A stretch of 64,000 bases of DNA from a bacterium (GTDB taxonomy: Bacteria; Zhuqueibacterota; Zhuqueibacteria; Zhuqueibacterales; Zhuqueibacteraceae): contig JAJVHT010000069.1 of the NCBI GenBank assembly GCA_022072515.1, positions 30,910-94,909 on the forward strand, written 5' to 3'. Shown piece after piece: positions 2,185 to 28,469 of the stretch; the stretch's first letter is position 1; each line of letters opens with the position of its first letter. Below the pieces are notes generated by a model. It was not told the DNA's origin. It did not search any database and saw nothing but the letters and a program-made list of their open reading frames with translations. The position numbers and the translations under genes are program-made.

Positions 2185-2205
2185 TGGCTTTTCCTGTTCA
2201 CAAAA

Positions 2206-4767
2206 TTACTTCGTCGCGAGAAGAATTCTGCTATTTTCGCGCAGCGTTTCATAAAGCCGATCGGCCAGGAGTTGATGTCCCTTCGCGTTCGGATGCAAAT
2301 CCCACTCCTTAACGCGCAACTCTTCCGCCGCATGGCCGTCAAAAGCAGAGGAAAGATTGACGATCGCAAATCCTGCGGCTTGGGCCAAATTCATAAAGCG
2401 CGTGCTTAATTTCGCATCGCGTTTGAGTTTTTCCGCCGCCGGCGTAACCACCGGTGTCAGCACATAAACCGGAAGAATGCCATGCTCCCGGCAAATTTGG
2501 GCAAAACGCGGAAAGGCTTCCGCCAGCGCCTCATCACCAAACTCTTTGAGGCGGGTGAAGATTTGCTCAAACGACATATCTTTGTTGACTTCGGCCTTTT
2601 GCACGATCGTGCGCAAAAAATCAAACGGCACGTCGCCGCCATCTTTCACCACATGGGTAAGATGCCGCGCCAGGCTGATTTCATCACGCGGCGTGGCACA
2701 CAAGAAAACGGCGTCCGGTTCAAACGCCACAACCTTTTTTTCCAACAAGAGGAGCTGGCGAATTGTGCAATAACCCGGCACTGAAAAATTCAACAATTCA
2801 TATTTGACAGACGGCTTGCCGCCGTTTTCCCGATTTAGGCGCGCTTCCAAAATGGCTTCGAAGATTTCATCGTCAGAAACACCGCTGCCAAAAGGTCCGG
2901 AAGCACCCAACACGGCGATCCGATAGACGCCGTGAGGTTTCTTTTGCTCATAATCCTGATCGCGAAATCCCCAGCGATTGATCGTCACTTTGGCGTTATG
3001 AAAAATGAGACTGGTTGAAGGAACCAACTCCAACCGCATAAAATCGCCGGTGCCGCGCCCGGCGGCGGTTTCCTGGATCATCGGCCAATCATCCGATTTT
3101 TTCATATCCAGTTCCCAAAGCTGGCTGTTGAATTGATTGGCCGCGTTGAGATTTTCATAATAACCGCGCGTGAGCAATTCAACCTCGTGCTGATTCAGCC
3201 GCGCCGTTTGCAGATCGCGGATGATTTCCTGCGTTCTATTGTCGAATGACGCCAAGGCCGCCGGTTTCCCGGACAAGAAAAGAAAAAGGCTTACAGCACT
3301 GGTCACTGCCGCCGTTCTCAAGAATGGAAAGAATCCGCTATTGGCCGCGGCGCGTTGGGGCGTTTTTTCAAACAGATAGGCGGCCGTTAAAAACACGCCA
3401 AACGCCAGCGCCAAGATGGGAATAAACTTAATCAGCGCGTCCAGCGTGATGTTGGCATTGGACCACAACGCCACCCAGTCGGCTACGGAAGTGCTTGTCC
3501 AAAGCGACCACAGCACCGTGACGATAAAAAAAAGTCCCATCACGCGCAATGCGAGAACAACGATTTCGGTAAACGCCAGTGCGCGTTGTCCCAACGCTTG
3601 TTGGCGACCACGTTTGTTTTCAAGAATCGAGTTGGCAATCACCAAGACGCCAAAGATCGCCCAAAACAGCATATCCGGCGCAGAAAAGAGAAACGAGCCG
3701 CGGATCCAAAACCACTGGTACGCATGAAAGAACCAGGTACACACAAAAACAACCGCCAGCGCAAGGAGCAGGCGGCTGGTGGCGCCCAATTTGCGCAAAC
3801 GGAAATAAAGCGGATAGAAAAAGACTTTCTGCATAAAGTCTTTCCAGTAAACGTTGGCCCGGCGCCAAAAATCCGTAAAGCTGGCCGCCAGAAAAAACCG
3901 CTGCATCGGTTTCGGCAAATTGAAGCCAAACAAATGCAACATGCCGACAACGAGAGTGAACAGTCCGATCAGCCACAGGATCAGCAAATAATTCGCCGTC
4001 ATGTATTGCGCCAAATCACTCAAACTCTTCACGTCTTCAGGGGGAAGCATCCAATAATAATTGATCGCGCGATAAAACATCAGTTGGATGATTCCCAGCA
4101 GCAGCAAATTGATGCCCTTTTGGTAAATCTGATGGCGGTCAGAGTCGTAATAGGTTCGGCAAAACGTGCTGTAATCCACCACCGGAAAGAGCGGGAACAC
4201 CACGTTCGGCAGCATAAAAAAATACGCCAGCGCATGTGGCAGGCTGGTTTTGCCTTTTTGATGTTTGAGATCGTAAAGATAAACCATGAGCCGGAACATG
4301 AACATGGAAGCCAGGATCGGCAAAACGACGCCGGCCCACGCAACTTTGATCTGGCCCAGACGCAGCACAACCAACATGGCGGCCATGGCAAGCAGCAGCG
4401 TGACGCGAACAGCAAGCGAAGCCGGCAGATGGCAAATGCCGATGAGCAGCAGGCCGAGGCCAATCAACCAGAGGCTGTTGGGAAAACCCAGAGCCGCATA
4501 AATTCCCACCACCGAAAGCACGATGAAAAATGGCAACCGATAGCGCTGAGGCAAAAAATAATGAATCAGGAAACCGCCAAAAGCCAACGGCATGATTTTC
4601 TCGTAGAACACCCGATTTTCCAACTGAAACTGGCGGACAACGAGAACAAGAAGGCCGACTTGAATAGCCAGGCTCAAAAACTTAGCCGCACCCATCCAAT
4701 CGCCAAAGAGCGTCCTGAGCCATCCAGAAGAAGTTGGCGAGGTGAGGTTAGCGTCTACTTTGCTCAT
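2206..4767 (-). CDS. MBOAT-family O-acyltransferase fused to C-terminal SGNH/DltD-like domain, paralog B
   Basis: 853-aa ORF with ATG start. The N-terminal ~400 aa are multi-TM, with MBOAT-type signature SFTDFWRRANVYWKDFMQKVFFYP and a conserved His in TWFFHAYQWFWIRG. About three further TM helices follow. The ~330-aa soluble C-terminal domain has YRIAVLGASGPFGSG (Ser block) and KEWDLHPNAKGHQLLADRL (DxxH block of SGNH/GDSL hydrolases). Confidence 0.8.
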   Translation of the reverse strand: MSKVDANLTSPTSSGWLRTLFGDWMGAAKFLSLAIQVGLLVLVVRQFQLENRVFYEKIMPLAFGGFLIHYFLPQRYRLPFFIVLSVVGIYAALGFPNSLWLIGLGLLLIGICHLPASLAVRVTLLLAMAAMLVVLRLGQIKVAWAGVVLPILASMFMFRLMVYLYDLKHQKGKTSLPHALAYFFMLPNVVFPLFPVVDYSTFCRTYYDSDRHQIYQKGINLLLLGIIQLMFYRAINYYWMLPPEDVKSLSDLAQYMTANYLLILWLIGLFTLVVGMLHLFGFNLPKPMQRFFLAASFTDFWRRANVYWKDFMQKVFFYPLYFRLRKLGATSRLLLALAVVFVCTWFFHAYQWFWIRGSFLFSAPDMLFWAIFGVLVIANSILENKRGRQQALGQRALAFTEIVVLALRVMGLFFIVTVLWSLWTSTSVADWVALWSNANITLDALIKFIPILALAFGVFLTAAYLFEKTPQRAAANSGFFPFLRTAAVTSAVSLFLFLSGKPAALASFDNRTQEIIRDLQTARLNQHEVELLTRGYYENLNAANQFNSQLWELDMKKSDDWPMIQETAAGRGTGDFMRLELVPSTSLIFHNAKVTINRWGFRDQDYEQKKPHGVYRIAVLGASGPFGSGVSDDEIFEAILEARLNRENGGKPSVKYELLNFSVPGYCTIRQLLLLEKKVVAFEPDAVFLCATPRDEISLARHLTHVVKDGGDVPFDFLRTIVQKAEVNKDMSFEQIFTRLKEFGDEALAEAFPRFAQICREHGILPVYVLTPVVTPAAEKLKRDAKLSTRFMNLAQAAGFAIVNLSSAFDGHAAEELRVKEWDLHPNAKGHQLLADRLYETLRENSRILLATK

Positions 4768-4875: not shown

Positions 4876-5130
4876 CTACTTGCCGCCCAATTTGGCTTGG
4901 ACGAGGCTCGCCAGGCTGGCGATGGTGTTAAAATTTTTGGTGTTCATTTCGTGTGCTTCGATTTGAACTCCATATTTCTTCTCGAGGAACGCCGCCATTT
5001 TAATGGTAGCCATGGAATCAAGAATTCCGCCGCTGACGAGCGGGGTCTCGTCGGCTAATCCCGCCGGATCCTCGCCGGGGAGAAATTCTTCCAGAATATA
5101 ATCCTTCACGATTTTTTTAATTTCGTTCAT
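4876..5130 (-). CDS. Stand-alone acyl/peptidyl carrier protein, DltC-like
   Basis: 84-aa ORF with ATG start. Carrier-protein size, with attachment-site-type motif GGILDSMATIKM (compare DltC LLDSFGTV). It sits between two MBOAT-SGNH genes. Confidence 0.8.
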   Translation of the reverse strand: MNEIKKIVKDYILEEFLPGEDPAGLADETPLVSGGILDSMATIKMAAFLEKKYGVQIEAHEMNTKNFNTIASLASLVQAKLGGK

Positions 5131-5155
5131 CTGTAAATCTCCTTATATGGTTTTT

Positions 5156-5267
5156 CGTAACTATTCAGCTATTTCACCGCCCGGGCGCTTATTTTTGATA
5201 TTGGTTATATCGCGCCATTTATTTTTGTACACAGATTTGAGCGCCCGGGCGGTACTGAATAGTTACG
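5156..5267 (+). repeat. Palindromic ~110-nt intergenic repeat (MITE/REP-like), copy 1
   Basis: Sequence runs cgtaactattcagctatttcaccgcccgggcgc ... gcgcccgggcggtactgaatagttacg. The termini are inverted repeats around a CCCGGG core. Near-identical copies occur at 55663-55772 (same orientation) and 56731-56843 (inverted). It lies between the MBOAT-A stop and the carrier-protein start. Confidence 0.85.
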
Positions 5268-5292
5268 TTTTTTCATCTGTTTAAGAAAAAAA

Positions 5293-7842
5293 TCACTTCC
5301 CTTCGAGATCAAGTAACTCCCGGTTTTCCTGGATTGTTTGATAGAGGCGGTCGGCCAACAGCCGATGTCCTTCGGCGTTGGGGTGCCAATCCCACTCAGC
5401 CACGCGCAGCGAATCCTTATTTTGATTTTCATACGCGTCGGATATATCGATAATCACAAATCCGTTCTCGCGGGCAACACCCATAAAATAGGCATCGCGC
5501 TCCGCATCCTTTTCCAATTTATGCACCACCGGCGTGTAAACATAAATGGGCTGAATGCTGTGCTGCCGGCAAATCTCGGCGAAGCGCGCATAGAGCCAGC
5601 CGAGCATTTCGTTGCCATAAGGTTTGAGGCGCTTCATCGCTTGATCCTCCGTCAGAGACGAATCGATAGCCGCCTTTTGCGCGATCGCCGCCAAGTAATC
5701 ATAGGGCATCGCCACCCCTTTTATCGCTGTTGCCGCCAGATGGCGCAATGAACTGATGTCCTCGCGCGGCGTGGCAATATAGAAGAGCGCATCCGGCTTG
5801 AAATCCAGCGCTTTCTTTTCGAGGACCACAAGTTCCTGAAGTGGGCTGTAGCCCGGCGAGGCAAAATTCAAAATTTCGTATCGGGCCGGCCCCTCGCCAT
5901 TGCGCGCATGATTCAAGCGCTCTTCCAAAAGCCATTCGAACGTCTCATTATCGGCAACGCCGCTGCCGAACACATGCGAGGCGCCGAGAACGGCGATACG
6001 ATAAGTCTGGTCCGCTTTCTCTTTTTCATATTCCTTGTCGCGCATCCCCCAACGATTGGTGCTGAGTTGGGCGCCATGAAAAACAATACGCTTTGAAGGG
6101 ACGATTTCGTCCCGCATAAAATCGCCGGTCAAGCGGCCGGCCGGCGTTTCCCGCAATGTGGGCCAATTGTCTGCCCGTTTCATGTAAATATCGCCAAGCT
6201 GGGTATTGAATTGGTTGGCTTGGTTGATATCTTCGTAGTAGCCGCGCGTCAATAGTTCCTCATCATGGCGATTCAATCTGGCCGTTTGCAGATCGCGAAC
6301 CAGCGCCGGCGTTTTTTCGCCCAAGTGGGTGTTAATATCCGGGTTTCCGATCAAACATAAAGCCAGCATGGGAACACCGGTAAGGAGAGCGGGGCGAAAA
6401 AATGGAACTTCGGTGTCTGGCGCGGCAGCATCACGCCAGGATAATTTTTCCAACACAATGATGGCCACCAAGAACACCCCGGTTGCCAGCAAGCAAGCGA
6501 CGATGACGCCTTGCAAAGTTACACCGGCGCCGGACAACAGGGCAAGCCAGTCCGCTATGGAAGGACTGATCCACAGAGACCAGAGAATGGCAATGACCGC
6601 AAAGACGCCGACAGTACGCAGCGTCCGCACCATGATTTCGCGCCAATTCCACGACGGCTTTTTTAAGATGCGTTTTCTGCCGTGCTTCGCCTCATAAAGC
6701 GAGTTTGCAATCACGATCAATCCAAAGCCGGACCAATACAACACGTCCGGCGCGGAAAACAAGAAAGAGCCTTTAATCCAAAACCATTGATAAGCGTGAA
6801 AAAGCCATGTTAAAATAAAAACCAGCGCCATGGCGAGAAAAAGGCCACTGCTCTCGCCCCGCTGGCGCAGCCGGATATAGAAAGGATAGAAAAACACCTT
6901 CTGCATGAAATCCTTCCAATAAATATTGGCGCGGCGCCAAAAATCCGTGAAACTCGACGCTAAAAAATAATTGTGCATCGTTTCCGGCAGATTGAATCCG
7001 AACAGGTGCAGCATACCGACAATCAAATGAAACTGCCCGGAAACGCGAAGCAAAACCATCATATTCGAAATCATGTATTGGATGAGCGTGCGCAAGCTGA
7101 CCACTTCGTCCGCAGCAATCGCCCAATAATAATTGACATAGCGATACAGAATCAGCAGCACCACCCCGCGGAACATCCAGTAAATCCCTTTCTGGTAAAT
7201 CCGCTGGCGGTCGCTGTCATAATAAGTCTGGCAAAACGTGCTGTAATCCACCACCGGAAAAAGCGGGAACACGACATTGGGCAGCAAAAAGAAATACGCC
7301 AGTGTCGACGCCAGGCGCTTTGTTGGGACGAGGCCGTGCTTCAGATCATAAAAATAAATCATGAGCCGGAACATAAACATGGAGGCGAGAATCGGCAAAA
7401 CCGCGCCGGCCCATGCAACTTTAATCTGGCCGATCCGCAGCAGCGCCAAACCAACACCGCCGGCGAGGAGTAAACCGGCGCGAACGACAAAAGCCACCGG
7501 CAGATGGCAGATACCGATCAACGCCAAGCCAATGCCAACCAGCCATAAACCATTGGGCAAGCCAAACGCCAGATAAATTCCTCCGAAGGAGAGAACAATA
7601 AAAAAAGGCAGACGATAGCGCAGCGGCAAAAAATAGTGCATCAAAAAACCACCAAAAGCCAGCGGCATAATTTTCTCGTAGAACACCTGGTTCTCCACCT
7701 GAAACTGGCGGGAAAGGAAAACGAGAAGGCCGAACTGAATCGCCACGCTCAGAAATTTGCCCACAGCAGCCCAAGCGCCGGCAAGCTGGCCAAACCCTCC
7801 AGCAGCGGCTGGTTGAACAAGCTGAGCGTCTGCTTTGATCAT
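5293..7842 (-). CDS. MBOAT-family O-acyltransferase fused to C-terminal SGNH/DltD-like domain, paralog A
   Basis: 849-aa ORF with ATG start. Same architecture as 2206-4767: SFTDFWRRANIYWKDFMQKVFFYP, TWLFHAYQWFWIKG, YRIAVLGASHVFGSG and AEWDWHPNAEGHRLLADRL. Long stretches are near-identical to its paralogs at the DNA level. Confidence 0.8.
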   Translation of the reverse strand: MIKADAQLVQPAAAGGFGQLAGAWAAVGKFLSVAIQFGLLVFLSRQFQVENQVFYEKIMPLAFGGFLMHYFLPLRYRLPFFIVLSFGGIYLAFGLPNGLWLVGIGLALIGICHLPVAFVVRAGLLLAGGVGLALLRIGQIKVAWAGAVLPILASMFMFRLMIYFYDLKHGLVPTKRLASTLAYFFLLPNVVFPLFPVVDYSTFCQTYYDSDRQRIYQKGIYWMFRGVVLLILYRYVNYYWAIAADEVVSLRTLIQYMISNMMVLLRVSGQFHLIVGMLHLFGFNLPETMHNYFLASSFTDFWRRANIYWKDFMQKVFFYPFYIRLRQRGESSGLFLAMALVFILTWLFHAYQWFWIKGSFLFSAPDVLYWSGFGLIVIANSLYEAKHGRKRILKKPSWNWREIMVRTLRTVGVFAVIAILWSLWISPSIADWLALLSGAGVTLQGVIVACLLATGVFLVAIIVLEKLSWRDAAAPDTEVPFFRPALLTGVPMLALCLIGNPDINTHLGEKTPALVRDLQTARLNRHDEELLTRGYYEDINQANQFNTQLGDIYMKRADNWPTLRETPAGRLTGDFMRDEIVPSKRIVFHGAQLSTNRWGMRDKEYEKEKADQTYRIAVLGASHVFGSGVADNETFEWLLEERLNHARNGEGPARYEILNFASPGYSPLQELVVLEKKALDFKPDALFYIATPREDISSLRHLAATAIKGVAMPYDYLAAIAQKAAIDSSLTEDQAMKRLKPYGNEMLGWLYARFAEICRQHSIQPIYVYTPVVHKLEKDAERDAYFMGVARENGFVIIDISDAYENQNKDSLRVAEWDWHPNAEGHRLLADRLYQTIQENRELLDLEGK

Positions 7843-7983
7843 ATCAATTTCCTTCGTTCTTTGTCAACGGCCAAGAGAGTCGTCGATGAATTCAAGGCCA
7901 GACGAGACTGCGGCGCCGGCGCGCGCGTCCGCCAGTGTTGCCTCGACTCGCCGTTTCCACAATGGCATAACCGTATGAAAACA

Positions 7984-9138
7984 CTATAACCCCAGCCAGC
8001 GCGCAATAATATTCCTCTGCATCTCCGAAGTGCCCGAATAAATCGTGCTGCCGATGGCGTCGCGCAGCGCGCGTTCCACCTCGTATTCGGTCATGAAACC
8101 ATAGCCGCCAAAAATTTGCACGGTGTTCAACGCCGTTTGCACGAGCGCTTCGCTGCCGAACACTTTGGCAATGGCCGCATCAATTGCCACCATGCGCGAG
8201 CGCTCCAGCCCCCAGGCCGCCTTGTAAATGAGCAGCCGCGCCGCCTCCAAACTGATCTTCATATCGGCAATACGGTGCGCCACCGCTTGAAACTTGCCGA
8301 TGGTTTGTCCGAACTGCTTGCGCGTGCGCGCCTGCCGAATTGCCTTCTCCAGCAGCCGCTCCATCGTGCCGACATGACAAGCCACCAGGCAAGCTCGCTC
8401 CCAATCCATCGAATGGGTGAACTGCGTGGAACCGGCGCCGACTTTGCCAAGAACTTGCGAAGCAGGAACATAAACATCTTCATACACCAACTCGCCAATC
8501 GGCGAGGTGCGCAAGCCCATCTTGTCCCACTTCTTACTCGATCTGAAACCGGGCGTGCCTTTCTCCACGAGAAACGTGGTGACGCCGCCGTGGTATCCTT
8601 TTTCCGGATCGGTCAGCGCAAAAGTCACAGCCAGATCGGCGACCGGCCCGTTCGAGCTGAAGGTTTTGGTGCCGTTTATGCGAAAACCCAAGCCGTCCGG
8701 TGTCGCCACGGCGCGCGTGCGCATCGCAAACGCATCCGATCCGGAGTCCGGCTCGCTCATCGCATTCACCGCGATAATCTTGCCGTTGCATAAACCCGGA
8801 AGGTATTTATGCTTTTGCTCTTCACTGCCAAATTTCCAGATCGGAATCACGCAAGCCAGCAAATGCGCGGCAAGAGAAAACGCCAATCCGCCGTCGTGAC
8901 AACCGTACCCAAACGCTTCGAGGGCGATGGCGGTTGACAGGGCATCCAAACCGCCGCCGCCATATTCTTCCGGCACCGGCAGACCCGGCAGCTTCATCTC
9001 GCCGCATTTGAGCCAAAGTTCGGGGGCAAAAATCTGCTCGCGATCCCTTTGCGCAATGCCTTCATTCAACTCTTGCTGCGCGAAACGAACAATCTCATCG
9101 CGCAGCAGCTTTTGTTCATCCGAATAAGAGAAATCCAT
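7984..9138 (-). CDS. Acyl-CoA dehydrogenase-family flavoprotein (probably acting on a carrier-protein-bound acyl or aminoacyl group)
   Basis: 384 aa with the ACAD pattern end to end: MSEPDSGSDA, FGGYGFMTEYEVERALRDA, IYSGTSEMQRNII. The canonical YEGT Glu is Ser here, and a Glu sits in MDWERACL, the isovaleryl-CoA-dehydrogenase-type position. Confidence 0.8.
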   Translation of the reverse strand: MDFSYSDEQKLLRDEIVRFAQQELNEGIAQRDREQIFAPELWLKCGEMKLPGLPVPEEYGGGGLDALSTAIALEAFGYGCHDGGLAFSLAAHLLACVIPIWKFGSEEQKHKYLPGLCNGKIIAVNAMSEPDSGSDAFAMRTRAVATPDGLGFRINGTKTFSSNGPVADLAVTFALTDPEKGYHGGVTTFLVEKGTPGFRSSKKWDKMGLRTSPIGELVYEDVYVPASQVLGKVGAGSTQFTHSMDWERACLVACHVGTMERLLEKAIRQARTRKQFGQTIGKFQAVAHRIADMKISLEAARLLIYKAAWGLERSRMVAIDAAIAKVFGSEALVQTALNTVQIFGGYGFMTEYEVERALRDAIGSTIYSGTSEMQRNIIARWLGL

Positions 9139-9255
9139 ATCGTGCTCTCATCACCGTAGTCTCGACCCCTTGCGGGCCGCTGTTACAAACATCGAATTGT
9201 TGTTCCTCGCCTGTCCCCACCAGGGGCGGCGCGACGAAGTTATTTATGCGCCGTT

Positions 9256-10599
9256 TTATGCGAAAGAAGATTTGAGCACATCCGCCGTCAGCGAACCCAG
9301 CTTGCTGTGCCAAATATGATTTTCGTTGTTTTCGACAATGTGAATAATTTCCCGCATTTTGCGCAACACTTCGGGTTGCTCCTCATCGTAAACGTCGCCT
9401 TGCAGCAGCTTGAGTACATCGAGGCGGTATTTGGGATTGCTAATAAATGCGGTGAACAGAATATTCAAACGATAATAGACCGCGATAAACTCATACCAGT
9501 TTCGCGTGCCGCGCTTGATGGTGGTCTCAAAAGTTTTGAAACTGTCTTTCGAGAAATTACCGCTTTCCAAAGCCGCGATAATATCCCGGCTGGCAAAGCG
9601 GGAGCTGTTTAACGCAATGCTGACGCCGGTGGAAAAAATGGGATCGACGAAACGCGCCGCGTCACCGACCATCACAAAACGATCGCCGCAAATTTCTTTG
9701 ATGGCATAACTGTAATCGCCTTCTTCCGTAAACGGGCGCATTTGCTCGGATTGTTTGAGCCGCGTAAAGATCTCCGGCCGGGTTCCGACGCAATCCCAAA
9801 AAAACTGCTCGCGCGCGGCGCGCTCTTTAGGAAAATTCATTTTCTGGGTCACCACCCCGATGCTGGTGATCGACTTCGTAATGGGAATCTGCCAGACCCA
9901 ACTATTGTTGAGCGGCAAAAAATGAATGAAAATGTAATCTTGCTTTTCCGAGGAGCCGCGATCATACCCGCGAAACCAGGTATGAATGGCGTATTGATCG
10001 AAAACCGGATCTTTAATTTTCAGTTTCAACCGGTTGCCGAGAAAAGTCCGGCGGCCGCTGGCGTCAACCACCAGGCGCACGTTCACCGGCATTTCTTTTG
10101 CACCGAGACCGACTTTGAGCTGCGCAAAGCCGTTGGCGTTCATATCCACATCTTTAACGGTGACTCCGCTGTAAACCGTCGCGCCGAGCTTTTGCGCATG
10201 TTGCAGCAACAACAAATCAAACTTCCCGCGATCCACGTGGTAGGTGTAATTTTGCTGGACGCCGGGTTGCTCGCGTTCCTCAAAGCGCAGATTGGCCTGA
10301 CAGTCCGGCTCCAGTCCTTCCCACTGGTGATCAGCCGTCAAAGCGCTCGTCGCCACCGTCCACACGGCGCCGTATTTGTGCGGAAATTTATTTTCTTCCA
10401 TCTGCTCGAGCAGACCGAGCTCTTTCAAAACCCGTGTCGAAGACGGCACGAGTGACTCGCCTACGTGCGGGCGGGGGAAAAGCTCGCCTTCGAAGACCAC
10501 ACATTTGATGCCGGCCTTGGCAAGATAAGCCGCCATGCTCGAACCCGCCGGGCCGCCGCCAACAATTCCAACTTCAAAATCTGGTTTTTCGTGATTCAT
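9256..10599 (-). CDS. Flavin-dependent halogenase 1
   Basis: 447 aa. Motifs: GIVGGGPAGS (GxGxxG), FPHKYGAVW (conserved Lys region), NNSWVWQIPIT (WxWxIP) and ARFVDPIFSTGVS (FxxPxxSxG). Confidence 0.85.
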   Translation of the reverse strand: MNHEKPDFEVGIVGGGPAGSSMAAYLAKAGIKCVVFEGELFPRPHVGESLVPSSTRVLKELGLLEQMEENKFPHKYGAVWTVATSALTADHQWEGLEPDCQANLRFEEREQPGVQQNYTYHVDRGKFDLLLLQHAQKLGATVYSGVTVKDVDMNANGFAQLKVGLGAKEMPVNVRLVVDASGRRTFLGNRLKLKIKDPVFDQYAIHTWFRGYDRGSSEKQDYIFIHFLPLNNSWVWQIPITKSITSIGVVTQKMNFPKERAAREQFFWDCVGTRPEIFTRLKQSEQMRPFTEEGDYSYAIKEICGDRFVMVGDAARFVDPIFSTGVSIALNSSRFASRDIIAALESGNFSKDSFKTFETTIKRGTRNWYEFIAVYYRLNILFTAFISNPKYRLDVLKLLQGDVYDEEQPEVLRKMREIIHIVENNENHIWHSKLGSLTADVLKSSFA

Positions 10600-10640
10600 C
10601 TTTCATCTCCATCGCGAATAAGATATGGTAAATGCGCCAA

Positions 10641-11927
10641 TCAATTGACATAGATATCGGATAACGCCTTCTTGAAAATATTTCCTTCCGGCGCATTTTC
10701 GACTTTCTGAATGAATTTCCGCATCTCTTCGAGCACCTCGACTTCGGCGCGATCATAGACTTCTCCCTGCAGCAGTTGCAGAACCTGCACGCGGTACTCT
10801 TTGTGGCTAATAAAGTAGGTGAACGACGGCAGCAGTTTGTAATAAAGCCGGATGAACTCATACCAAATATTGACGCCGCCTCGCACCTTGTCCTCGTAGG
10901 GCTTGAAGGTGGCTTCGCTGAAGTCGCCGGTTGCAAAAGCGAGACGAATTCTTTCCGAGGCGTATTTGGCGCTGTACATGGCGACGCTCACGCCGGAGGA
11001 AAAAATGGGATCGACGAAGCGCGCGGCATCGCCGACCATCAAAAAGCCGTTGCCGCAAAATTTCTCCATGCTATAGCTGTAGTCGCCCTCGCTTTTGAAT
11101 TCATTGATGCGCTCCGCGTTTTGCATGGCGCGGGCGATTTCGGGCGTCGAATTCAACAGCGATTTGAACCAGCCATCGGGATCGAGCTTCGATTCCTTGA
11201 ACACGTCGCGTTCGGCCACCACGCCGACCGAGGTAATCTTATCCGTGATCGGAATCTGCCAAATCCAGCCGCGGTTGACTTTCAAAAAATAGATGTGAAT
11301 ATAATCCGCGCTCTCGCCGGCGCCGCGATCGACGTCTTTGAACCAGGCGTGCACGGCGTACTGATTGAAAATCGGATCCTTTTTCTTCAAATTTAACTGC
11401 CGGCCGAGAAAAGTGCCGCGGCCACTCGCATCGACCACCATCTTGCACGGTATGGTTACCGCTTGGCCGCCAATCTCGAACTGAACTCCCTGCGGATAGC
11501 CATCTTTAAAGATGACTTCCTTGGCGTGGGCACCCTGGTAAACTTTCGAACCAAGCTTCTCGGCATGTTTCAACAGCAGCAAATCGAGCTTGCCGCGATC
11601 GACGTGATAAGTATAATCCTGGTCGATGCCGGGCTGCGCAAATTCGCGAAAGGCGATGTCAAATTCGCCGCGTTTTTCCGGTGGATGCCAGGCGGCGCCG
11701 TATTTTTTGACGAACCCCTCGCGCTCCATCGTCTCCAAAAAGCCGATTTCTTTGAGCACTCGCGTTGTGCTGGTTACCAGAGACTCGCCAACATGCGGCC
11801 GGGGATGATTGGCGCTATCAAAAATCATGTTTTTGATGCCGGCCATCGAAAGATAACTGCCCAATGTCGAACCTGCCGGCCCGCCGCCGATGATGACAAC
11901 GTCTTGCATTCCATTTGATGATTGCAT
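10641..11927 (-). CDS. Flavin-dependent halogenase 2
   Basis: 428 aa, with AAGGAG 8 nt upstream of ATG 11927. Motifs: VIIGGGPAGS, VKKYGAAW, NRGWIWQIPIT (WxWxIP) and ARFVDPIFSSGVS. Paralog of 9256-10599. Confidence 0.85.
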   Translation of the reverse strand: MQSSNGMQDVVIIGGGPAGSTLGSYLSMAGIKNMIFDSANHPRPHVGESLVTSTTRVLKEIGFLETMEREGFVKKYGAAWHPPEKRGEFDIAFREFAQPGIDQDYTYHVDRGKLDLLLLKHAEKLGSKVYQGAHAKEVIFKDGYPQGVQFEIGGQAVTIPCKMVVDASGRGTFLGRQLNLKKKDPIFNQYAVHAWFKDVDRGAGESADYIHIYFLKVNRGWIWQIPITDKITSVGVVAERDVFKESKLDPDGWFKSLLNSTPEIARAMQNAERINEFKSEGDYSYSMEKFCGNGFLMVGDAARFVDPIFSSGVSVAMYSAKYASERIRLAFATGDFSEATFKPYEDKVRGGVNIWYEFIRLYYKLLPSFTYFISHKEYRVQVLQLLQGEVYDRAEVEVLEEMRKFIQKVENAPEGNIFKKALSDIYVN

Positions 11928-12071
11928 TGATGAACTCCTTTAGGTTGAAAGACACACGATGCATTGACCATCCATTCTGACGAAGAAAATCCATCGAGAG
12001 TTTTTCAGTTCATTGAATAAACATTTTTTTGTATTTTTACTCACACATTTAAAAAAATCGCCATTTAAAAA

Positions 12072-13538
12072 TTAAGCCGCCAAACTCGTTGCCGGGGCTC
12101 GCACCGCCTCGCGCCGTTTCACAAACTCGAGCAGTGCGAGCAGCGGCCCGGTCATAAATGTCGTCACCAGCGCCATGAGCACCATCATGGCAAAAACGCG
12201 CGGGGAAAGAATCCCCATATCGTATCCAAGGTTGAGCACGATCAACTCCATCAAGCCGCGGGTATTCATCAGCACGCCGATGGATAACGCATCATGCCAG
12301 CTCATGCCGGTCCACCGGGCCGCCAACGCGCTGACGCCTAATTTTCCGGCAATGGCGATTGCAATAATGCCCGCGCCCAGCAACCAACTCTGCCAGTCAT
12401 TCAGCAAGCCAATCTGAGTGCGTAACCCGGTGAAGGCAAAAAACAGCGGCAGCAGAAAGACCGCGCTGAACGTTTCAAGACGCTCGCGGAGAAACAGCCG
12501 CAAACTTGCGTGTTGGGGCATGGCCACGCCGGCGAGAAAAGCGCCGAACAGCGCATGAATACCGATCACTTCGGTGAACAACGCTGCCGCAAAGACAAAT
12601 ATTAAAACGCTGGCGACAACGCCCTTGCCCAACGGCGCATTCTGCGCTTTTGTATCCATAAGACGGCCAGCACTGGGCTTGACGAAAAGCAGCATGATGC
12701 CAATAAAACCCAGCGACAGTGAAATCGTCAGCACGGCCCCGCTCAAGCCGGAGGCTTTGGCAATGGCGACCACGACAGCGAGAAGGCACCAAGCCGTCAC
12801 GTCATCCACCGCCGCGCACGCGATGGCGGTGCTGCCAAGATACGATTTCGCCAAACCGCGCTCTTCGATGATGCGGGCCAGCACCGGAAACGCCGTAATA
12901 CTCATCGCAATTCCGATAAACAGCGCAAATGCGATGAAGGAAACATGCGGAGCTGCCAAAAAATTGTATACCAGCAGTGAGAATGCCACACCGAGAAAAA
13001 ACGGCACCACGATACTAACATGACTCACCAACACCGCGGCGTGCGCTTTTTGGCGCAGGTACTGCAAATTCAATTCAATCCCGACAACGAACATAAACAG
13101 AATCACGCCAATCTGACTGAGCAACCTTAAGGCGCCCATCGAAGCCTCGGGAAAGAGAAAAGCTTCCATTCCCGGCGACAGCATCCCGAGCAAAGAAGGG
13201 CCGAGCAAAATACCGGCAATCATCTCGCCGATTACAGCCGGTTGCCCAATTTTTTGGAAAAGCGCTCCGAACAATCTTGCCGCGGCGATAATCACAATGA
13301 TTTGCAAGAGCAAAATGCTCAACGGATGGTGCAGATTGTCGAGTAAACCTTTGAACAAGTGGCTTGCCGGTGTTTCCGATTGCTGTAATGGCGTCGGCGT
13401 TGTTTCCTGTGAAGGAACGATTCTTTTATATGGGAACGTCTGGCCGGGATGCAGGCGCGAACCGACTTCCAATATAAAGGAAATACCGACTCCAAAGATG
13501 ATGATCAGAACGCCATACACCAACAAATTCTTGCGCAT
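12072..13538 (-). CDS. Cation:proton antiporter (CPA2 / Na_H_Exchanger family)
   Basis: 488 aa, about 12 hydrophobic segments, family-typical GEMIAGILLGPSLLG near the N-terminus. No KTN/TrkA domain. Confidence 0.75.
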   Translation of the reverse strand: MRKNLLVYGVLIIIFGVGISFILEVGSRLHPGQTFPYKRIVPSQETTPTPLQQSETPASHLFKGLLDNLHHPLSILLLQIIVIIAAARLFGALFQKIGQPAVIGEMIAGILLGPSLLGMLSPGMEAFLFPEASMGALRLLSQIGVILFMFVVGIELNLQYLRQKAHAAVLVSHVSIVVPFFLGVAFSLLVYNFLAAPHVSFIAFALFIGIAMSITAFPVLARIIEERGLAKSYLGSTAIACAAVDDVTAWCLLAVVVAIAKASGLSGAVLTISLSLGFIGIMLLFVKPSAGRLMDTKAQNAPLGKGVVASVLIFVFAAALFTEVIGIHALFGAFLAGVAMPQHASLRLFLRERLETFSAVFLLPLFFAFTGLRTQIGLLNDWQSWLLGAGIIAIAIAGKLGVSALAARWTGMSWHDALSIGVLMNTRGLMELIVLNLGYDMGILSPRVFAMMVLMALVTTFMTGPLLALLEFVKRREAVRAPATSLAA

Positions 13539-13616
13539 AAAGCACGCCTTTCTAAAGCATCGGAGTTGATGAATTTACGAATCCAAAGCCCTTGCCGGGC
13601 GGCGAATGGACCGGCC

Positions 13617-15188
13617 TCACGCAGCCGTCGTCTTCAGCCGTTGGTAATCAATTTTGTCCGTCGAAGTTTTGGGCAGCGTCTCCAAAAACATAAAGAGATC
13701 GGGCACCATATAAGACGGCAAATTTTCCGCACAAAATCCTTTCAGCTCGATCAGTGAGGGGCGCTTGCCGTCTTTGCAACTGAGAAACGCTTTGACGCGC
13801 ACGCCGTTGGTTTCATCCGACAGCGCAATCACTGCGGCTTCGCGGATCGCCGGATGTTTGTAAAGTCCCGCTTCGATCTCGCCGAGCTCGACACGGTAAC
13901 CGCGCTTTTTGACCATGCGATCGCGCCGGCTCACGTAAATATAACCTTCTTCGGCATGCTCGACGACGATGTCGCCGGTTTTATACCAGCGCCGGCCCGT
14001 GTGCTCGGCAAGGAATGACTGCGCCGTGCGTTCCGGCAAATTCCAATAACCCTGCATTACCCCTTCGCCAGTAACGACCAACTCGCCTTCCTGTCCGGCG
14101 GGAACTTCCTGGCCTTGCTCGTCTACGACTTTGCATTGCACGTGCGCGCAGGATTTCCCAATCGGATAGGGCGTGTTGCGCTCTTCCGGAATCGTGGCCG
14201 GGATTTCGTACCAGGTGCAAACGTTCGTTTCGGTCGGACCGTACAAATTGAAATAGCGCGGTTGCGGCAGCAAATTTTTCAACGCGCGCAGATGCTTGAC
14301 GGGAAACACTTCGCCGGCAAAAAAAACGCTGCGCAACGCCGAGCAATCATATTTTTCCAATTTGCCGTATTGCATGAGAAAGCTCAAAATCGACGGCGTC
14401 GAATACCACACCGAAATTTTTTTCTCGGCTAGCAACGGCGCCAGTTGCGCCGGAGCTTTGCCGGTTTCTTCGCTGATCAACACCAGCGTACCGGCATGTT
14501 TGATGGCGAGATAAATATCCAAAATCGACAGATCAAAATGGAACGGCGCATGGGAAGAGAAGCGATCATCGGCGTTCGGCGCAAAAGTATCCGAGCACCA
14601 GTTCACAAAACTGGTGGCGTTGCGATGCGACAGCATCACCCCTTTGGGCAAGCCGGTCGATCCCGAGGTATAGAGAATGTACGCGAGATCATCCGGCGCC
14701 GAAACGGCGGTTGCAGCCGCCGGGGCCGGAGCTTTTTCCTGCGCTTCGTCCAGAGCTTTTTGCAAAAATTTGCCGCCGCCAGTTTCTTCCAGAAGAATGA
14801 AAGCTGGCATGGGAGTTTCCGGCGGCCACTCGGCGCGAAATTTCTCTTCGAAGCGTTGCTCTATGATCACTGCTTTGATCGAGCAATTGCTCAGAATGTA
14901 AACGCCGCGACTAACCGGGGCATTCGGATCGATGGGCACATAAGCCGCACCGGTTTTCAATATGCCGAAGATGGCCGCTACCGCGTCAATGGATTTGCGC
15001 AGATACATTCCAACACGGTCGCCGCGTCGCACACCGAGATAATGCAAACGGTCACGCAGTTGGTCAGAAAGTTTGGCCAAATCGCGATAGGTGATCACGC
15101 CGCTCTCCGGCTCATCCACCGCGGGATGCTCCGGACGAACGCGGGCGGAATCGTCGAGAAACTGATGCAAAGGGTTGAACGCCGTCAT
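13617..15188 (-). CDS. Stand-alone adenylation enzyme, DltA-like (amino acid--carrier protein ligase)
   Basis: 523 aa. Motifs: LAYILYTSGSTGLPKGV (A3), FHFDLSILDIY (A4), VWYSTPS, FFAGEVFPV, NLYGPTETNV (A5), WYKTGD (A7), VKKRGYRVELGEIE (A8) and KTSTDKIDYQ (A10). The spacing and motifs resemble B. subtilis DltA as I recall it. Confidence 0.8.
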   Translation of the reverse strand: MTAFNPLHQFLDDSARVRPEHPAVDEPESGVITYRDLAKLSDQLRDRLHYLGVRRGDRVGMYLRKSIDAVAAIFGILKTGAAYVPIDPNAPVSRGVYILSNCSIKAVIIEQRFEEKFRAEWPPETPMPAFILLEETGGGKFLQKALDEAQEKAPAPAAATAVSAPDDLAYILYTSGSTGLPKGVMLSHRNATSFVNWCSDTFAPNADDRFSSHAPFHFDLSILDIYLAIKHAGTLVLISEETGKAPAQLAPLLAEKKISVWYSTPSILSFLMQYGKLEKYDCSALRSVFFAGEVFPVKHLRALKNLLPQPRYFNLYGPTETNVCTWYEIPATIPEERNTPYPIGKSCAHVQCKVVDEQGQEVPAGQEGELVVTGEGVMQGYWNLPERTAQSFLAEHTGRRWYKTGDIVVEHAEEGYIYVSRRDRMVKKRGYRVELGEIEAGLYKHPAIREAAVIALSDETNGVRVKAFLSCKDGKRPSLIELKGFCAENLPSYMVPDLFMFLETLPKTSTDKIDYQRLKTTAA

Positions 15189-15218: not shown

Positions 15219-16259
15219 TTATGCCGCTTTATATCCGCGCACGAAACTATTCACGCCGTAAACTGACATCGCACTGGAGACGATATTGCTGAAACCCGCT
15301 TCCGCCAACCAGCGTTTGCTGTCGCTCATCGTATGGTTCTTGCCGTGTTTTGTCGTGCAGAGCAAATCCAGATCGATGAAGACGGCCCAACGCCCGCCTA
15401 GGCGGTTTTCCTGCAAGTGTTGTGACTGGATGACGACGGAGCCGCCGGGATTGAGTGCTTCATGCAAACGCGCCAGGAGCCGCCGGCGTGTCGCCTCATC
15501 GAAAATGTGCAGCAGATTCGAGGCGAGAATCAAATCGTACGATCCGGGAATATCGTCGCGCACCGCATCGAACGGCAAATAGTGCACTTCATTTTGCAAT
15601 GGATACTTTGCCTGAATTTCTTTGGCCACGTCCAGAACGCCGGCATTATCCATCAGATAAAGCTGCAAATCCGGATTGCGCATTCCCAACATAAACGCAT
15701 ACGTGCCCGAGCCGCAGCCCAAATCCAACAAAGTTTTGCAGCCGCGCGTGTCCAGATAGTGCGCCAGCTCTTTGCCGCGCAATGACGCGTAGTTGTGCAT
15801 GGCCAGCGTGTAAGTGCGCGTGAGATTGGGGTCGACGCCGAGATAATCGGCCTGGTCGGCCGTGGGTTCGGAGCTGAGCACGGCTTCATCAAGGCGGAAG
15901 ATGGCCGTGCAAAATTCTTTCTGCAGGCGAATCCAATTGCCGAGGTAATTATCGCCGGCGGACGGCAACAACACAGACCGGCATGCTGGTGCGGCCCGAA
16001 AGCTGGTGCCGTCTTCGGTTTCAAGCAGCTTCAGCACGACGCCGGCATTTAACAAACGCACCAAAGATTCCGGCCGCGCTTTGATTTCTGCCGCCAGCGC
16101 TTGCACCGTCTTGCTGTCATCGCCGAGGCGCTCGAAAATTTCCAGTTTGAGCAGCGCGAACAGAACGCTGGACTGATAAAAGCCTTCGGCGATGGTCAGC
16201 ACCTGAATTTGATCTTTGATGATCGAGGTGCGGTTCGAGGTTGTCGGTGGTTGCGCCAT
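15219..16259 (-). CDS. SAM-dependent O-methyltransferase (class I, with N-terminal dimerisation-type domain)
   Basis: Motif I is LLDLGCGSGTYAFML, with a helical N-terminal domain typical of small-molecule OMTs. The track ORF extends to 16334, but that overlaps the upstream gene by 71 nt. The internal ATG at 16259 (MAQPPTTS) leaves a 4-nt gap after the upstream stop. Confidence 0.75.
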   Translation of the reverse strand: MAQPPTTSNRTSIIKDQIQVLTIAEGFYQSSVLFALLKLEIFERLGDDSKTVQALAAEIKARPESLVRLLNAGVVLKLLETEDGTSFRAAPACRSVLLPSAGDNYLGNWIRLQKEFCTAIFRLDEAVLSSEPTADQADYLGVDPNLTRTYTLAMHNYASLRGKELAHYLDTRGCKTLLDLGCGSGTYAFMLGMRNPDLQLYLMDNAGVLDVAKEIQAKYPLQNEVHYLPFDAVRDDIPGSYDLILASNLLHIFDEATRRRLLARLHEALNPGGSVVIQSQHLQENRLGGRWAVFIDLDLLCTTKHGKNHTMSDSKRWLAEAGFSNIVSSAMSVYGVNSFVRGYKAA

Positions 16260-16263
16260 AATT

Positions 16264-16857
16264 TTAGAATTGATAGCCGAATTTTTCAATATCAGTTTGA
16301 AACCAGCGCCCGACGATTGCAAGCGAGGCGTCATTGTAGTACTGCCGATAGTCGCCGCGGTCGGATTTCTTCAAATGCGGCAACTCGGCCTCCCGGTTGA
16401 GCAGCAAACAAATTTTCGCGAAATCGGCCTGCAGATTCTCAAATCTGCCGATGAAATTAACCGCCTGCTTGCCGTTCTCGTCGATCAGCCAATGCCATTG
16501 CGGCATGAACATCTTGGGTTTGTTATAATACTCCGGCGCATTATCGCCGTAGGCCAATTTCACCCACTCATTAAAATCGACGGCCTTCGTTCCCAATGCG
16601 GTTTGGTTCGTCATGACGCGGTAATGATAATGCGACACCACGCGATCCCAGGGATTTCTGACGATTGCGAAGCTGAACAATTTTTTCCACGTGTCTTTGC
16701 CCAGCTCGGATATTTTCTCCAAAGCCGTCCGGTGTCCGAAATTCAATCCCAAGGCCTGCTCGATGCTGCTGCCGCCGGTCTTGTTGATATGAATAAAGAA
16801 AAATCCCCGTTGCACCGCCAGCGGGCGGCGCCGGCGGCCTTCTCCGATCTCGTTCAT
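16264..16857 (-). CDS. Sulfotransferase (family-2-like)
   Basis: 197 aa. FFFIHINKTGGSSIEQAL is a PAPS 5-prime-phosphosulfate-binding loop; AIVRNPWDRVVSHY is the 3-prime-phosphate-binding motif. ATGA overlap with the upstream gene. Confidence 0.75.
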   Translation of the reverse strand: MNEIGEGRRRRPLAVQRGFFFIHINKTGGSSIEQALGLNFGHRTALEKISELGKDTWKKLFSFAIVRNPWDRVVSHYHYRVMTNQTALGTKAVDFNEWVKLAYGDNAPEYYNKPKMFMPQWHWLIDENGKQAVNFIGRFENLQADFAKICLLLNREAELPHLKKSDRGDYRQYYNDASLAIVGRWFQTDIEKFGYQF

Positions 16858-17936
16858 GAATCCAATCTATCCTCAAAATCAAATTTTTTTGCCATCGTCG
16901 CAATGGATTCAGCTTCAGCGCTCGATAAAACTTTTTTCCAGCCCGCAATGCGTTCGCCAACCGGCAGGCCGCGCCGATGTTTCGCGCTTGACGAGCTGTC
17001 GTCATCAAACACCCGAAAATCGTGTTCGCCAACCGGCGCCACGTTTAGGCGTTGCAGCATTTCCAAAACAACCTGCTCGCGCCGACGGCACAAGTCTTCA
17101 TAACTCACAAAAACGATGCGGGCGCGGTTATCGGCAAAGCTGTGCTGCACAAACTTCTCGGTCAATGCCCAGTAAGCTGTGAGGCGCGTTACCATATCAC
17201 CTTCGTCGTAATGCTTGATCTCCTCACGCCATTGGCCGAAAAAATCGGCGCGCCCATCGTCCGGGTGGAGAAGTTGATTTGCCAAACTCAGATGCTTGAA
17301 CATGCTTCCCCACGGCGTCGTTTTGGCGCTCGCCATCACAGCGCGCGGATCGCGATAAATGTGAATGACCGGCAAGGCGAACGTATTGTGTACAGCCCGC
17401 AGGCAAAGCTGAGCCCGAACACATTTTAAAATGACGCGCGTGCGAAAGCTTTCATCCAGACGGTTGCGATAAATTCGAACCCATCTGCCCGAGAGGGCGG
17501 AATGCAGCGCCAGATCGAAGACGCGGTGCAACGGATGCCCTGCGAGCGTGGGCGCGCCGCAGAAAGGCATATACTGCCATAAAAATCCTTTTTTTCTTTC
17601 AGCCAGATAATTGTCTTGCGCGTAAAGGGCCTTTACTTCCGGCACCTCGGAAAACAGCGGCTCAAAAACCAGTTTGGCGGTGAGCATTTTCGTCAGCGAC
17701 TCTTGCAGCCAGGTCGTGCCGCTGCGCCAAAAACCGCACATGAACAGGCTGTCACGCGGATTGATTTGCGCGGCAACTTGCCGATCAATGTCATAAGAAG
17801 CGGCGGCGGCGCGCAATTTTTTTTCACGGTTTTTTGACGCCGCCGTTGTCGCCGCTTGGGGCTTACCTGAATTCATAAAGTGCTCTGTCTCATTGCAACA
17901 TATCATCCGGAGCGCCGGGAACTTTGTGCTTACCAA
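16854..17936 (-). CDS. Sulfotransferase (P-loop RSGTTW type)
   Basis: CGFWRSGTTWLQESL is the 5-prime PSB loop; HIYRDPRAVMAS is the 3-prime PB motif. The track start at 17936 is TTG. In-frame ATGs at 17906 and 17876 are alternative starts. Confidence 0.75.
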   Translation of the reverse strand: MVSTKFPALRMICCNETEHFMNSGKPQAATTAASKNREKKLRAAAASYDIDRQVAAQINPRDSLFMCGFWRSGTTWLQESLTKMLTAKLVFEPLFSEVPEVKALYAQDNYLAERKKGFLWQYMPFCGAPTLAGHPLHRVFDLALHSALSGRWVRIYRNRLDESFRTRVILKCVRAQLCLRAVHNTFALPVIHIYRDPRAVMASAKTTPWGSMFKHLSLANQLLHPDDGRADFFGQWREEIKHYDEGDMVTRLTAYWALTEKFVQHSFADNRARIVFVSYEDLCRRREQVVLEMLQRLNVAPVGEHDFRVFDDDSSSSAKHRRGLPVGERIAGWKKVLSSAEAESIATMAKKFDFEDRLDS

Positions 17937-17941
17937 AAACT

Positions 17942-19624: not shown

Positions 19625-19703
19625 CCCTTGATTTTGGGTTTCATACCGGTTGCTCCGTTCGTCTCAAAAAACTGCAAAACAGTCCAACGGCTGTATGGGC
19701 ACT

Positions 19704-20753: not shown

Positions 20754-20845
20754 TTTAAAACGTTGCGATAAAACGTTTGCCGGTGGACGTGTTTTTAGAT
20801 TAGCGGCTATTGAACTTTGCTTGGCGCCATAACGAAGCAACCGTC

Positions 20846-22186: not shown

Positions 22187-22219
22187 CTTATGTTTTTCTC
22201 CCTTGGCTCAGCTATACCA

Positions 22220-25668: not shown

Positions 25669-25700
25669 CCAAAGCGGGTAATGTCGAAATACTATAAATC

Positions 25701-25753: not shown

Positions 25754-25768
25754 TGTTGCCTGTTTTCC

Positions 25769-27610: not shown

Positions 27611-27623
27611 ACCACATTCCTCC

Positions 27624-28400: not shown

Positions 28401-28469
28401 CTTCGTTCGCAAGATTGAATTCGAAATTACACTCTTCAATTCACCCTTTTTACCGCTTGGCCAAAGCGT

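Follow-up and report, generated by a model that had tools for sequence, protein, structure and literature searches.

A prolyl-to-halopyrrole cassette linked to MBOAT-SGNH fusion proteins may serve carrier-dependent acylation of a bacterial surface molecule

In the Dlt and PatAB pathways, an MBOAT protein passes an acyl group to a Tyr in an extracytoplasmic FxYxxF motif, from which it moves to the Ser of an SGNH protein and finally to a polymer (PMC12148441). Dlt is the only described MBOAT/SGNH pathway in which the donor is an aminoacyl-S-carrier supplied by a stand-alone adenylase; the non-Dlt pathways have no carrier protein, and in them MBOAT and SGNH are two distinct polypeptides (PMC12148441). 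Here we analyzed a 64,000-nucleotide stretch of DNA (the window; contig JAJVHT010000069.1, positions 30,910 to 94,909, assembly GCA_022072515.1) from a bacterium of the Zhuqueibacteraceae, which carries a cassette for a stand-alone adenylase, a small carrier protein, a flavoprotein of the acyl-CoA dehydrogenase (ACAD) family and two flavin-dependent halogenases (Hal1 and Hal2), together with genes for MBOAT-SGNH fusion proteins (MS1, MS2 and MS3). The thiotemplated pyrrole systems PltF/L/E/A, Bmp1-4, Mpy, Clz, PigI/G/A and RedM/O/W resemble it in their proline adenylase, type II carrier, ACAD and PltA-type halogenases. The window cassette differs from them in that its conserved partner is a membrane MBOAT-SGNH protein and in that it lies in an envelope-glycan locus, not in a polyketide or alkaloid cluster. 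It has the first three hallmarks of such systems, the adenylase, the carrier and the ACAD, and lacks the fourth, an acceptor in the form of a ketosynthase (KS), condensation (C) or thioesterase (TE) domain. In clorobiocin and coumermycin biosynthesis (CloN1-7), a pyrrolyl-2-carboxyl group is likewise made from proline on a carrier and esterified onto a sugar hydroxyl, but that route is cytoplasmic, employs soluble acyltransferases, is directed at an aminocoumarin glycoside and involves no membrane MBOAT-SGNH protein.

The original prediction, made by reading the sequence, had listed an adenylase, a carrier, an ACAD and two halogenases as a co-directional set, and all of these genes were found on the minus strand between positions 4876 and 15188, separated by intergenic gaps of 22-162 nt. 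While its members were correctly named, that list had overlooked a CPA2-family antiporter gene inside the cassette, and it had counted two MBOAT-SGNH genes where three are present (Table 1). In the direction of transcription, the order is adenylase, antiporter, Hal2, Hal1, ACAD, MS2 and carrier, followed by MS1 and MS3 just beyond the cassette, so that the carrier gene is flanked by two MS genes. As judged from sequence comparison, the adenylase, carrier, ACAD and halogenases are all of the thiotemplated-pyrrole type, and the adenylase code together with the ACAD and halogenase matches argues for the predicted cassette product, a halogenated, oxidised aminoacyl thioester. We lean, by a small measure, towards a carrier-dependent pathway that moves a (halo)pyrrole-2-carboxyl group across the membrane to an acceptor. 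In this pathway, the PltF-like adenylase would activate L-proline and load it onto the 84-aa carrier, the ACAD flavoprotein would oxidise the prolyl-S-carrier to the pyrrolyl-2-carboxyl-S-carrier, as its homology predicts, and Hal1 and Hal2 would place halogens on the carrier-bound pyrrole, probably at no fewer than two positions. The halopyrrolyl-S-carrier would then bind, from the cytoplasmic side, to the MBOAT domain of MS1, MS2 or MS3, where, by analogy with DltB/DltX and PatA, His348 would catalyse acyl transfer to Tyr536 or Tyr537 of a GYYE motif outside the membrane. Finally, Ser623 of the SGNH domain would take the acyl group and esterify a hydroxyl of an extracytoplasmic acceptor.

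The adenylase is predicted with high confidence to be specific for L-proline, because its specificity code, read off alignments to solved structures, is near-identical to that of PltF. The code is DLLYFALVCK in the window enzyme, DLLYLALVCK in PltF and DLFYIAWVC(K) in the prolyl ligase 7thn, so that the first two agree at 9 of 10 positions. The best single-domain match of the whole protein in the PDB was PltF (6o6e, E 1e-98), with DltA proteins at 2.7e-66 or worse; when the pocket region was searched alone, PltF (7e-37) ranked above the prolyl ligase 7thn (5.6e-23) and DltA (about 1e-16 to 1e-18). Three DltA structures differed from the window enzyme at 5-6 of 9 pocket positions. The original prediction had cautioned that the adenylase looked DltA-like in its motif spacing and had asked for its code to be derived; both the pocket residues and the ranking of PDB matches speak against a DltA-like enzyme and in favour of proline. 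The carrier, with its phosphopantetheine attachment site at Ser39, is indeed a small carrier protein as first described, but it is nearer to the PltL type than to DltC: it matched the acyl carrier protein of Bmp1 (2.4e-10), PltL (2.2e-7) and PigG (5e-7), all of which outscored DltC (1.8e-4), and the DltC-like reading suggested by its LDS motif was dropped. A match to the NCBIfam model ACP_for_OlsHI (105 bits against a cut-off of 130) was also set aside as uninformative. In the paper on the OlsH/OlsI ornithine-lipid pathway, the enzymes are a GH3-like protein and an alpha/beta hydrolase, and an acyl carrier protein is nowhere mentioned.

The ACAD protein was most similar in the PDB to AnaB (5e-117), PigA (7e-97) and Bmp3 (6cxt_B, 1e-84), which ranked above all acyl-CoA dehydrogenases, including the butyryl- and isovaleryl-CoA enzymes. 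Among NCBIfam models, those of PigA (441 bits) and RedW (422 bits) stood out from the next (311 bits), although both scores are below the equivalog cut-offs. Thus, by match scores, the ACAD falls with the prolyl-carrier dehydrogenases and ahead of the enzymes of primary metabolism. Both halogenases contain the four signatures noted at the outset, namely GGGPAG (14-19), KYGAVW (75-80), WVWQIP (234-239) and FVDPIFSTG (317-325) in Hal1, and GGGPAG (14-19), KYGAAW (75-80), WIWQIP (221-226) and FVDPIFSSG (304-312) in Hal2. The two proteins share 48% identity and matched PltA, Mpy16 and ChlB4 at E values of 1e-125 to 1e-172, as compared with 1e-12 to 1e-59 for other halogenases. Bmp2, CndH and CmlS were far weaker matches, as were the free-substrate enzymes RadH, PltM and the tetracycline halogenase (1e-12 to 1e-40). 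Hal1 and Hal2 are therefore, by these match scores, PltA-type (variant B) flavin-dependent halogenases, of the kind that uses carrier-tethered substrates, and the grouping with free-substrate halogenases that would have spoken against the original prediction did not appear. PltA and Mpy16 act on a pyrrolyl-S-carrier (PMC8407142).

Considering that the adjacent halogenases need an electron-rich ring, we infer a four-electron oxidation of the prolyl group. Were the ACAD to stop after the removal of two electrons, as AnaB does, a dehydroprolyl or pyrroline-carboxyl group (or plain prolyl where no ACAD is encoded) would be transferred, and the halogenases would come in later or use a different substrate. 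Among solved structures, AnaB matches the ACAD best, and some loci, such as L005 (described below), combine a carrier and an adenylase with no ACAD within 10 kb. By contrast, the top NCBIfam models are those of the pyrrole-forming enzymes PigA and RedW, and two PltA-type halogenases, whose characterised relatives need an aromatic pyrrolyl-S-carrier, adjoin the ACAD gene; we therefore consider a two-electron oxidation very unlikely.

The MS1 protein is predicted to consist of a DltB-like MBOAT domain (residues ~1-500), a flexible linker containing G535-Y536-Y537-E538 and an SGNH domain (residues ~600-850) with Ser623, Asp823 and His825. No MBOAT match for the N-terminal ~500 residues was obtained with Pfam (E up to 10), with NCBIfam or with a 20-sequence profile searched against the PDB. 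We built an AlphaFold2 model of MS1 on a 20-sequence alignment (mean pLDDT 77.6) and compared it with the PDB using Foldseek. The top match was DltB (8jem_A, E 8.7e-7, target-normalised TM score 0.66); 6bug was also retrieved, as were the eukaryotic MBOATs HHAT and PORCN, and the C-terminal third matched SGNH/GDSL esterases. Together with the Pfam match to Lipase_GDSL_2, the model thus supports the general architecture of an MBOAT joined to an SGNH domain with a Ser/Asp/His triad, and the match to a DltB-type MBOAT with a catalytic His lies at the level of the predicted fold, His348 being invariant. Across 90 aligned family members drawn from many phyla, N305, H348, G535, Y536, Y537, E538, S623, D823 and H825 were invariant or nearly so, and Asn305 and His348 lay within motifs resembling MBOAT signatures. 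The linker at 523-560, which holds the GYYE motif, was modelled with low confidence, consistent with flexibility. Loop charges in the family obey the positive-inside rule, which places the linker and the SGNH domain, as predicted, outside the cytoplasmic membrane. MS3 starts with an ATG at 2184, carries the HAYQWFW, RGYYE and LLGAS motifs and has an N-terminal extension like that of the 922-936-aa type found in relatives.

By analogy with the described relays, the MS proteins would fit an MBOAT-Tyr-SGNH relay contained in a single polypeptide with a variant Tyr motif. They resemble Dlt (DltA/C/B/X/D) in that DltB is their top structural match and in that, after the pyrrole-pathway proteins, the window adenylase and carrier come closest to DltA and DltC. 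They differ from it in the predicted substrate, which is proline and not D-alanine, in the oxidation and halogenation of the acyl group on the carrier, in the fusion of MBOAT and SGNH and in the lack of DltX and of a separate DltD. No gene for a DltX-like microprotein was found between the module genes, and the internal GYYE motif may stand in for DltX. The hosts differ as well, Dlt being found in Firmicutes and the present module mostly in diderm or uncultured lineages. PatA/PatB, AlgI/AlgJ/AlgX and WssH-type systems share with the MS proteins the predicted relay from MBOAT His to acyl-Tyr to SGNH Ser to polymer, as well as extra transmembrane helices after the MBOAT core and a Tyr motif placed outside, but they use acetyl-CoA as donor, have no carrier and keep MBOAT and SGNH in separate proteins. 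OatA and related AT3-SGNH proteins likewise combine, in one polypeptide, a transmembrane acyl-translocating domain with an extracytoplasmic SGNH domain and a Tyr intermediate; their translocating domain has the AT3 and not the MBOAT fold, and their donor is acetyl-CoA as opposed to the predicted acyl-carrier.

To what extent the fusion gene and the cassette belong together is indicated by their distribution. In a scan of one genome per GTDB species, the MBOAT-SGNH fusion gene was present at 388 loci, each from one species genome, and these span over 10 phyla. Searching 1.84 billion representatives with a profile gave 1,536 clusters (50% identity) at E <= 1e-30. In the databases, MS1 is most closely related to hypothetical proteins of metagenome-assembled genomes (MAGs), the nearest named relative being from a KSB1 MAG. 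We fetched 77 loci (numbered with the prefix L), which come from Chloroflexota, Gemmatimonadota, Acidobacteriota, Pseudomonadota, Planctomycetota, Verrucomicrobiota, Methylomirabilota, Binatia, Eisenbacteria, Rhodothermales, KSB1 and Cytophagia-labelled MAGs. In most of these loci, tblastn with the window proteins located a carrier (40-89% identity), an adenylase (43-75%) and an ACAD (50-88%) beside the fusion gene. For 26 loci, at least 6 kb of sequence was available on each side of that gene; the carrier is encoded in 22 of them, the adenylase in 17, the ACAD in 21 and a PltA-like halogenase in 11. All 47 MS-adjacent adenylases carry the code DL[LF]Y[LHFNV]ALVCK, and in 31 of them it is identical to that of PltF. 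The genes form compact operons on a single strand in Pseudomonadota, Methylomirabilota, Binatia, Verrucomicrobiota, Planctomycetota, Gemmatimonadota and Chloroflexota, with the gene order MS-carrier-adenylase-ACAD in L047, L062, L078 and L080, adenylase-ACAD-MS-carrier in L063 and adenylase-ACAD-carrier-halogenase-MS in L039. Each of the two halogenase types, Hal1-like and Hal2-like, is also found singly beside MS genes in other phyla. In the close relatives L003, L009 and L084, the cassette proteins are 83-93% identical to those of the window and the layout is the same. It includes the antiporter, three MS genes, two carriers and either two or three halogenases; GT4 glycosyltransferase, sulfotransferase and sugar-nucleotide genes come next. 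Since the linkage recurs in independent assemblies, a chimeric contig is ruled out. We conclude that the window locus is an elaborated form, with halogenases added and the MS gene triplicated, of a four-gene core with a far wider distribution, composed of the carrier, the Pro-adenylase, the ACAD and the MBOAT-SGNH protein. The synteny of this core across many phyla strongly supports the view, put forward in the original prediction, that MBOAT-SGNH proteins are the acceptors of the thioester.

Variants of the core were also observed. L005 has a carrier, a Pro-code adenylase and an MBOAT-SGNH protein (8077-12922) next to phosphonate (phosphoenolpyruvate mutase) and teichoic-acid-like (Glyphos_transf) genes, and L029, L031, L056, L065 and L068 likewise lack an ACAD in the fetched sequence, several of them being short contigs with less flank. 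Such loci suggest a plain prolyl-transfer version of the pathway. L001 encodes a 700-aa fusion of an ABC ATPase with a halogenase (5356-7458), beside which lie genes for the substrate-binding protein and permease of an NMT1/OpuAC-type ABC importer (2117-3738).

Next to the question of the donor stands that of the acceptor. No KS was detected among the long open reading frames of the window by Pfam scan, and the window contains no KS, intact C domain or TE domain that could take the pyrrolyl thioester, the only thioesterase being of type II. The sole C-domain match in the window lies in a nonribosomal peptide synthetase (NRPS)-like protein (22220-24976, minus strand, 918 aa), which comprises the C-terminal half of a C domain (profile positions 184-455 only), an adenylation (A) domain and a peptidyl carrier protein (PCP) domain; the N-terminal half of the C domain, with its HHxxxDG region, is missing. 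Its gene and those for the type II thioesterase and an MbtH-like protein lie 7-14 kb upstream of the cassette in the same orientation. The statement that the cassette has no downstream assembly line thus stands as far as a KS and an intact C domain are concerned, but has to be qualified by the nearby A-PCP protein, type II thioesterase and MbtH-like protein. Because this set is syntenic in L084, the truncated C domain appears to be conserved and not a recent defect. As side observations, the code of the NRPS-like A domain reads approximately DMYHLGMMDK by manual reading and matches no recognised code, and the MbtH-like protein has a C-terminal extension of ~110 aa.

These genes raise the alternative that the thioester is used in the cytoplasm by the NRPS-like set to make a small pyrrole amide or ester, with the MS proteins acting as acetyl-CoA-dependent glycan O-acetyltransferases. 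The conservation of the NRPS-like protein, a serine hydroxymethyltransferase (SHMT), the type II thioesterase and the MbtH-like protein beside the cassette in L084 would be in keeping with this, as would the fact that known pyrrolyl-S-carriers pass their group to C domains, KS domains or soluble acyltransferases. However, the C domain lacks the N-terminal half that contains the HHxxxDG region, the carrier gene lies between two MS genes, and the MBOAT-SGNH protein, carrier, Pro-adenylase and ACAD occur together in many phyla where the NRPS is absent. A cytoplasmic fate of this kind strikes us as distinctly improbable.

By contrast, an envelope acceptor would be in keeping with the neighbouring genes. 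The window cassette is surrounded by five sulfotransferase genes, genes for the synthesis of 3′-phosphoadenosine 5′-phosphosulfate, at least seven glycosyltransferase genes, two MsbA-like ABC exporters and a MacB-type pump. The sulfotransferases belong to four Pfam families (16264-18547, 24973-25734 and 56938-58786, minus strand) and are accompanied by an adenylylsulfate (APS) kinase and an ATP sulfurylase, which indicates heavy sulfation of the locus product. Sulfotransferase and glycosyltransferase genes also flank the module in L001, L003 and L084, and in L001 an alginate-export porin is encoded beside it. Recurrent neighbours among the fetched loci were GT4 (21 loci), PMT_2-type GT-C (9) and GT2 (7) glycosyltransferases, AT3 proteins (7), sulfatase-family proteins (6) and carbamoyltransferases (5). 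The most likely acceptor in the window organism, in our view, is a glycan or glycolipid that the neighbouring glycosyltransferases assemble and the sulfotransferases sulfate; where the module forms a compact operon, the target may instead be a common envelope component. In three relatives, a gene for a BD-FAE-family protein with a type IX secretion system (T9SS) tail lies between the ACAD and the first MS gene (L001, 8737-9909; L003, 5912-7087; L084, 19327-20505), while no BD-FAE-like esterase gene is present in the window. The BD-FAE family comprises feruloyl and acetyl-xylan esterases, and such enzymes remove aromatic acyl esters from polysaccharides. Its placement recalls that of the Ape1 esterase in the PatAB operon, and it could be a de-acylating counterpart.

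These observations also bear on the possibility that the module exports its product by hydrolysis, in which case the SGNH domain would set free a halogenated pyrrole-2-carboxylic acid (or, once it is decarboxylated, halopyrroles) to act outside the cell as a diffusible toxin or signal. The SGNH superfamily is rich in esterases, the structural matches of MS1 in this region are esterases, and the compact four-gene operons elsewhere have no obvious acceptor-synthesis genes. Free halopyrroles are, moreover, end products known from the related Bmp chemistry (PMC8407142). Yet a two-step acyl relay with an SGNH domain is the architecture of the transferases Dlt, PatAB and OatA, the module sits among glycosyltransferase, sulfotransferase and polysaccharide-export genes both in the window and in relatives, and the separate secreted esterase of the relatives would be redundant were the SGNH domain itself the hydrolase. 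We regard release by hydrolysis as fairly unlikely and favour transfer to an envelope acceptor.

Table 1. Genes of the cassette and its neighbourhood in the window
Feature	Position	Strand	Evidence
MS3, third MBOAT-SGNH paralogue; starts at 2184, cut by the left window edge	1..2184	-	tblastn, 50% identity to MS1 over residues 15-660
MS1, 853-aa MBOAT-SGNH fusion	2206..4767	-	AlphaFold2 model/Foldseek matches to DltB and GDSL esterases; Pfam Lipase_GDSL_2
Type II carrier protein (84 aa) with Ser39 of GGILDS as phosphopantetheine attachment site	4876..5130	-	PP-binding, E 2.3e-5
MS2, 849-aa MBOAT-SGNH paralogue with C-terminal SGNH domain	5293..7842	-	57% identity to MS1
Predicted prolyl-S-carrier dehydrogenase, ACAD family (PltE/PigA/RedW/AnaB/Bmp3-like), 384 aa	7984..9138	-	Three ACAD domains, E 1e-24 to 1e-44
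Hal1, PltA-type flavin-dependent halogenase	9256..10599	-	ChlB4 1.6e-172, PltA 4.9e-170, Mpy16 5.6e-170
Hal2, PltA-type halogenase	10641..11927	-	Mpy16 5e-131, ChlB4 2e-125, PltA 8e-125
CPA2-family cation/proton antiporter within the cassette	12072..13538	-	Na_H_Exchanger, 7e-57
Stand-alone adenylating enzyme, predicted L-proline loader (PltF-like), 523 aa	13617..15188	-	AMP-binding, E 1e-89
SAM-dependent O-methyltransferase-family protein	15219..16334	-	Methyltransf_2, 7e-20
Three genes for sulfotransferases and two for GT2 glycosyltransferases, which may synthesise the acceptor glycan	16264..20882	-	Pfam
SHMT paralogue, NRPS-like protein, sulfotransferase, T9SS-tailed protease-like protein, type II thioesterase, MbtH-like protein	20846..29048	-	Syntenic set in L084

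Two further genes of the locus appear to be connected with the cassette. Among the fetched loci, antiporter orthologues were found only where PltA-like halogenases occur (L003, L013, L019, L040, L042 and L084), which suggests that the CPA2 antiporter may be tied to halogenation, for example through ion/halide balance or pH. The methyltransferase encoded next to the adenylase is fused to it in frame in the relative L084/P0126 (10001-12655, 884 aa, 89% identity to the window methyltransferase). It is therefore probably linked functionally to the cassette, and the fusion hints at a methylation step. Farther away, the region 31579-45733 on the minus strand contains seven paralogous genes for proteins of the aminoglycoside phosphotransferase (APH) fold, interleaved with GT4 genes, the two MsbA-like ABC exporter genes and genes for two DUF5666 proteins (43496-43960 and 44097-44606); a third DUF5666 protein is encoded at 55776-56423. 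An assignment of the seven APH-fold proteins to the lanthipeptide kinase LxmK was rejected (29-40 bits against a cut-off of 315). Two large secreted proteins with T9SS sorting tails were also noted within the cluster on the minus strand, namely a trypsin-like protein with an F5/8 type C domain (25769-27640) and a metallophosphoesterase with CBM96 and TIG domains (29148-31466). These tails assign the window organism to the Bacteroidota/FCB group.

Several points weigh against the pathway that we favour. Transfer to a surface molecule is something that we infer, and SGNH domains are frequently hydrolases. AnaB, to which the ACAD is closest among solved enzymes, takes the oxidation no further than the pyrroline. 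The MBOAT assignment comes from a predicted structure and is not seen by sequence profiles, and GYYE[ND]L shares with the published FxYxxF shuttle motif no more than the Y and the final hydrophobic residue. The NRPS-like, type II thioesterase and MbtH-like genes, being conserved and syntenic in L084, allow another fate of the thioester. No flavin reductase gene was seen, and all of the sequences derive from MAGs. ChlB4, which belongs to the same halogenase clade as Hal1 and Hal2, is thought to use an enzyme-tethered salicylate (PMC8407142).

We searched the open-access literature and found no paper linking an MBOAT with pyrrole, prolyl, ACAD or adenylation genes, nor, in the literature searched, any report of proline-derived aromatic groups, halogenated or otherwise, on bacterial surfaces. 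Carrier-dependent MBOAT-SGNH envelope acylation is known in kind; the predicted acyl chemistry would be new, and the distribution is unusually wide. The broader proposal, which we hold to be evenly poised between right and wrong, is that a widespread new pathway esterifies surface glycans or lipids with a proline-derived pyrrole-2-carboxyl group by means of a fused, carrier-dependent MBOAT-SGNH protein, and that in the window organism this group is poly-halogenated and carried by a sulfated glycoconjugate. Such a pathway would constitute a second class of carrier-dependent envelope acylation besides Dlt, with a fused enzyme and a much wider spread, and transmembrane transfer to a surface acceptor would be a new fate for a pyrrolyl-S-carrier. 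The module flags uncharted envelope chemistry in Chloroflexota, Gemmatimonadota, Acidobacteriota, Planctomycetota, the KSB1/Bacteroidota group and others, and its compact operons of four or five genes are small enough for heterologous expression. If the proposal is true, building the acyl group on a carrier would allow it to be tailored before export, the thiotemplate chemistry of natural products would merge with envelope acylation, and Dlt would be one case of a broader class.

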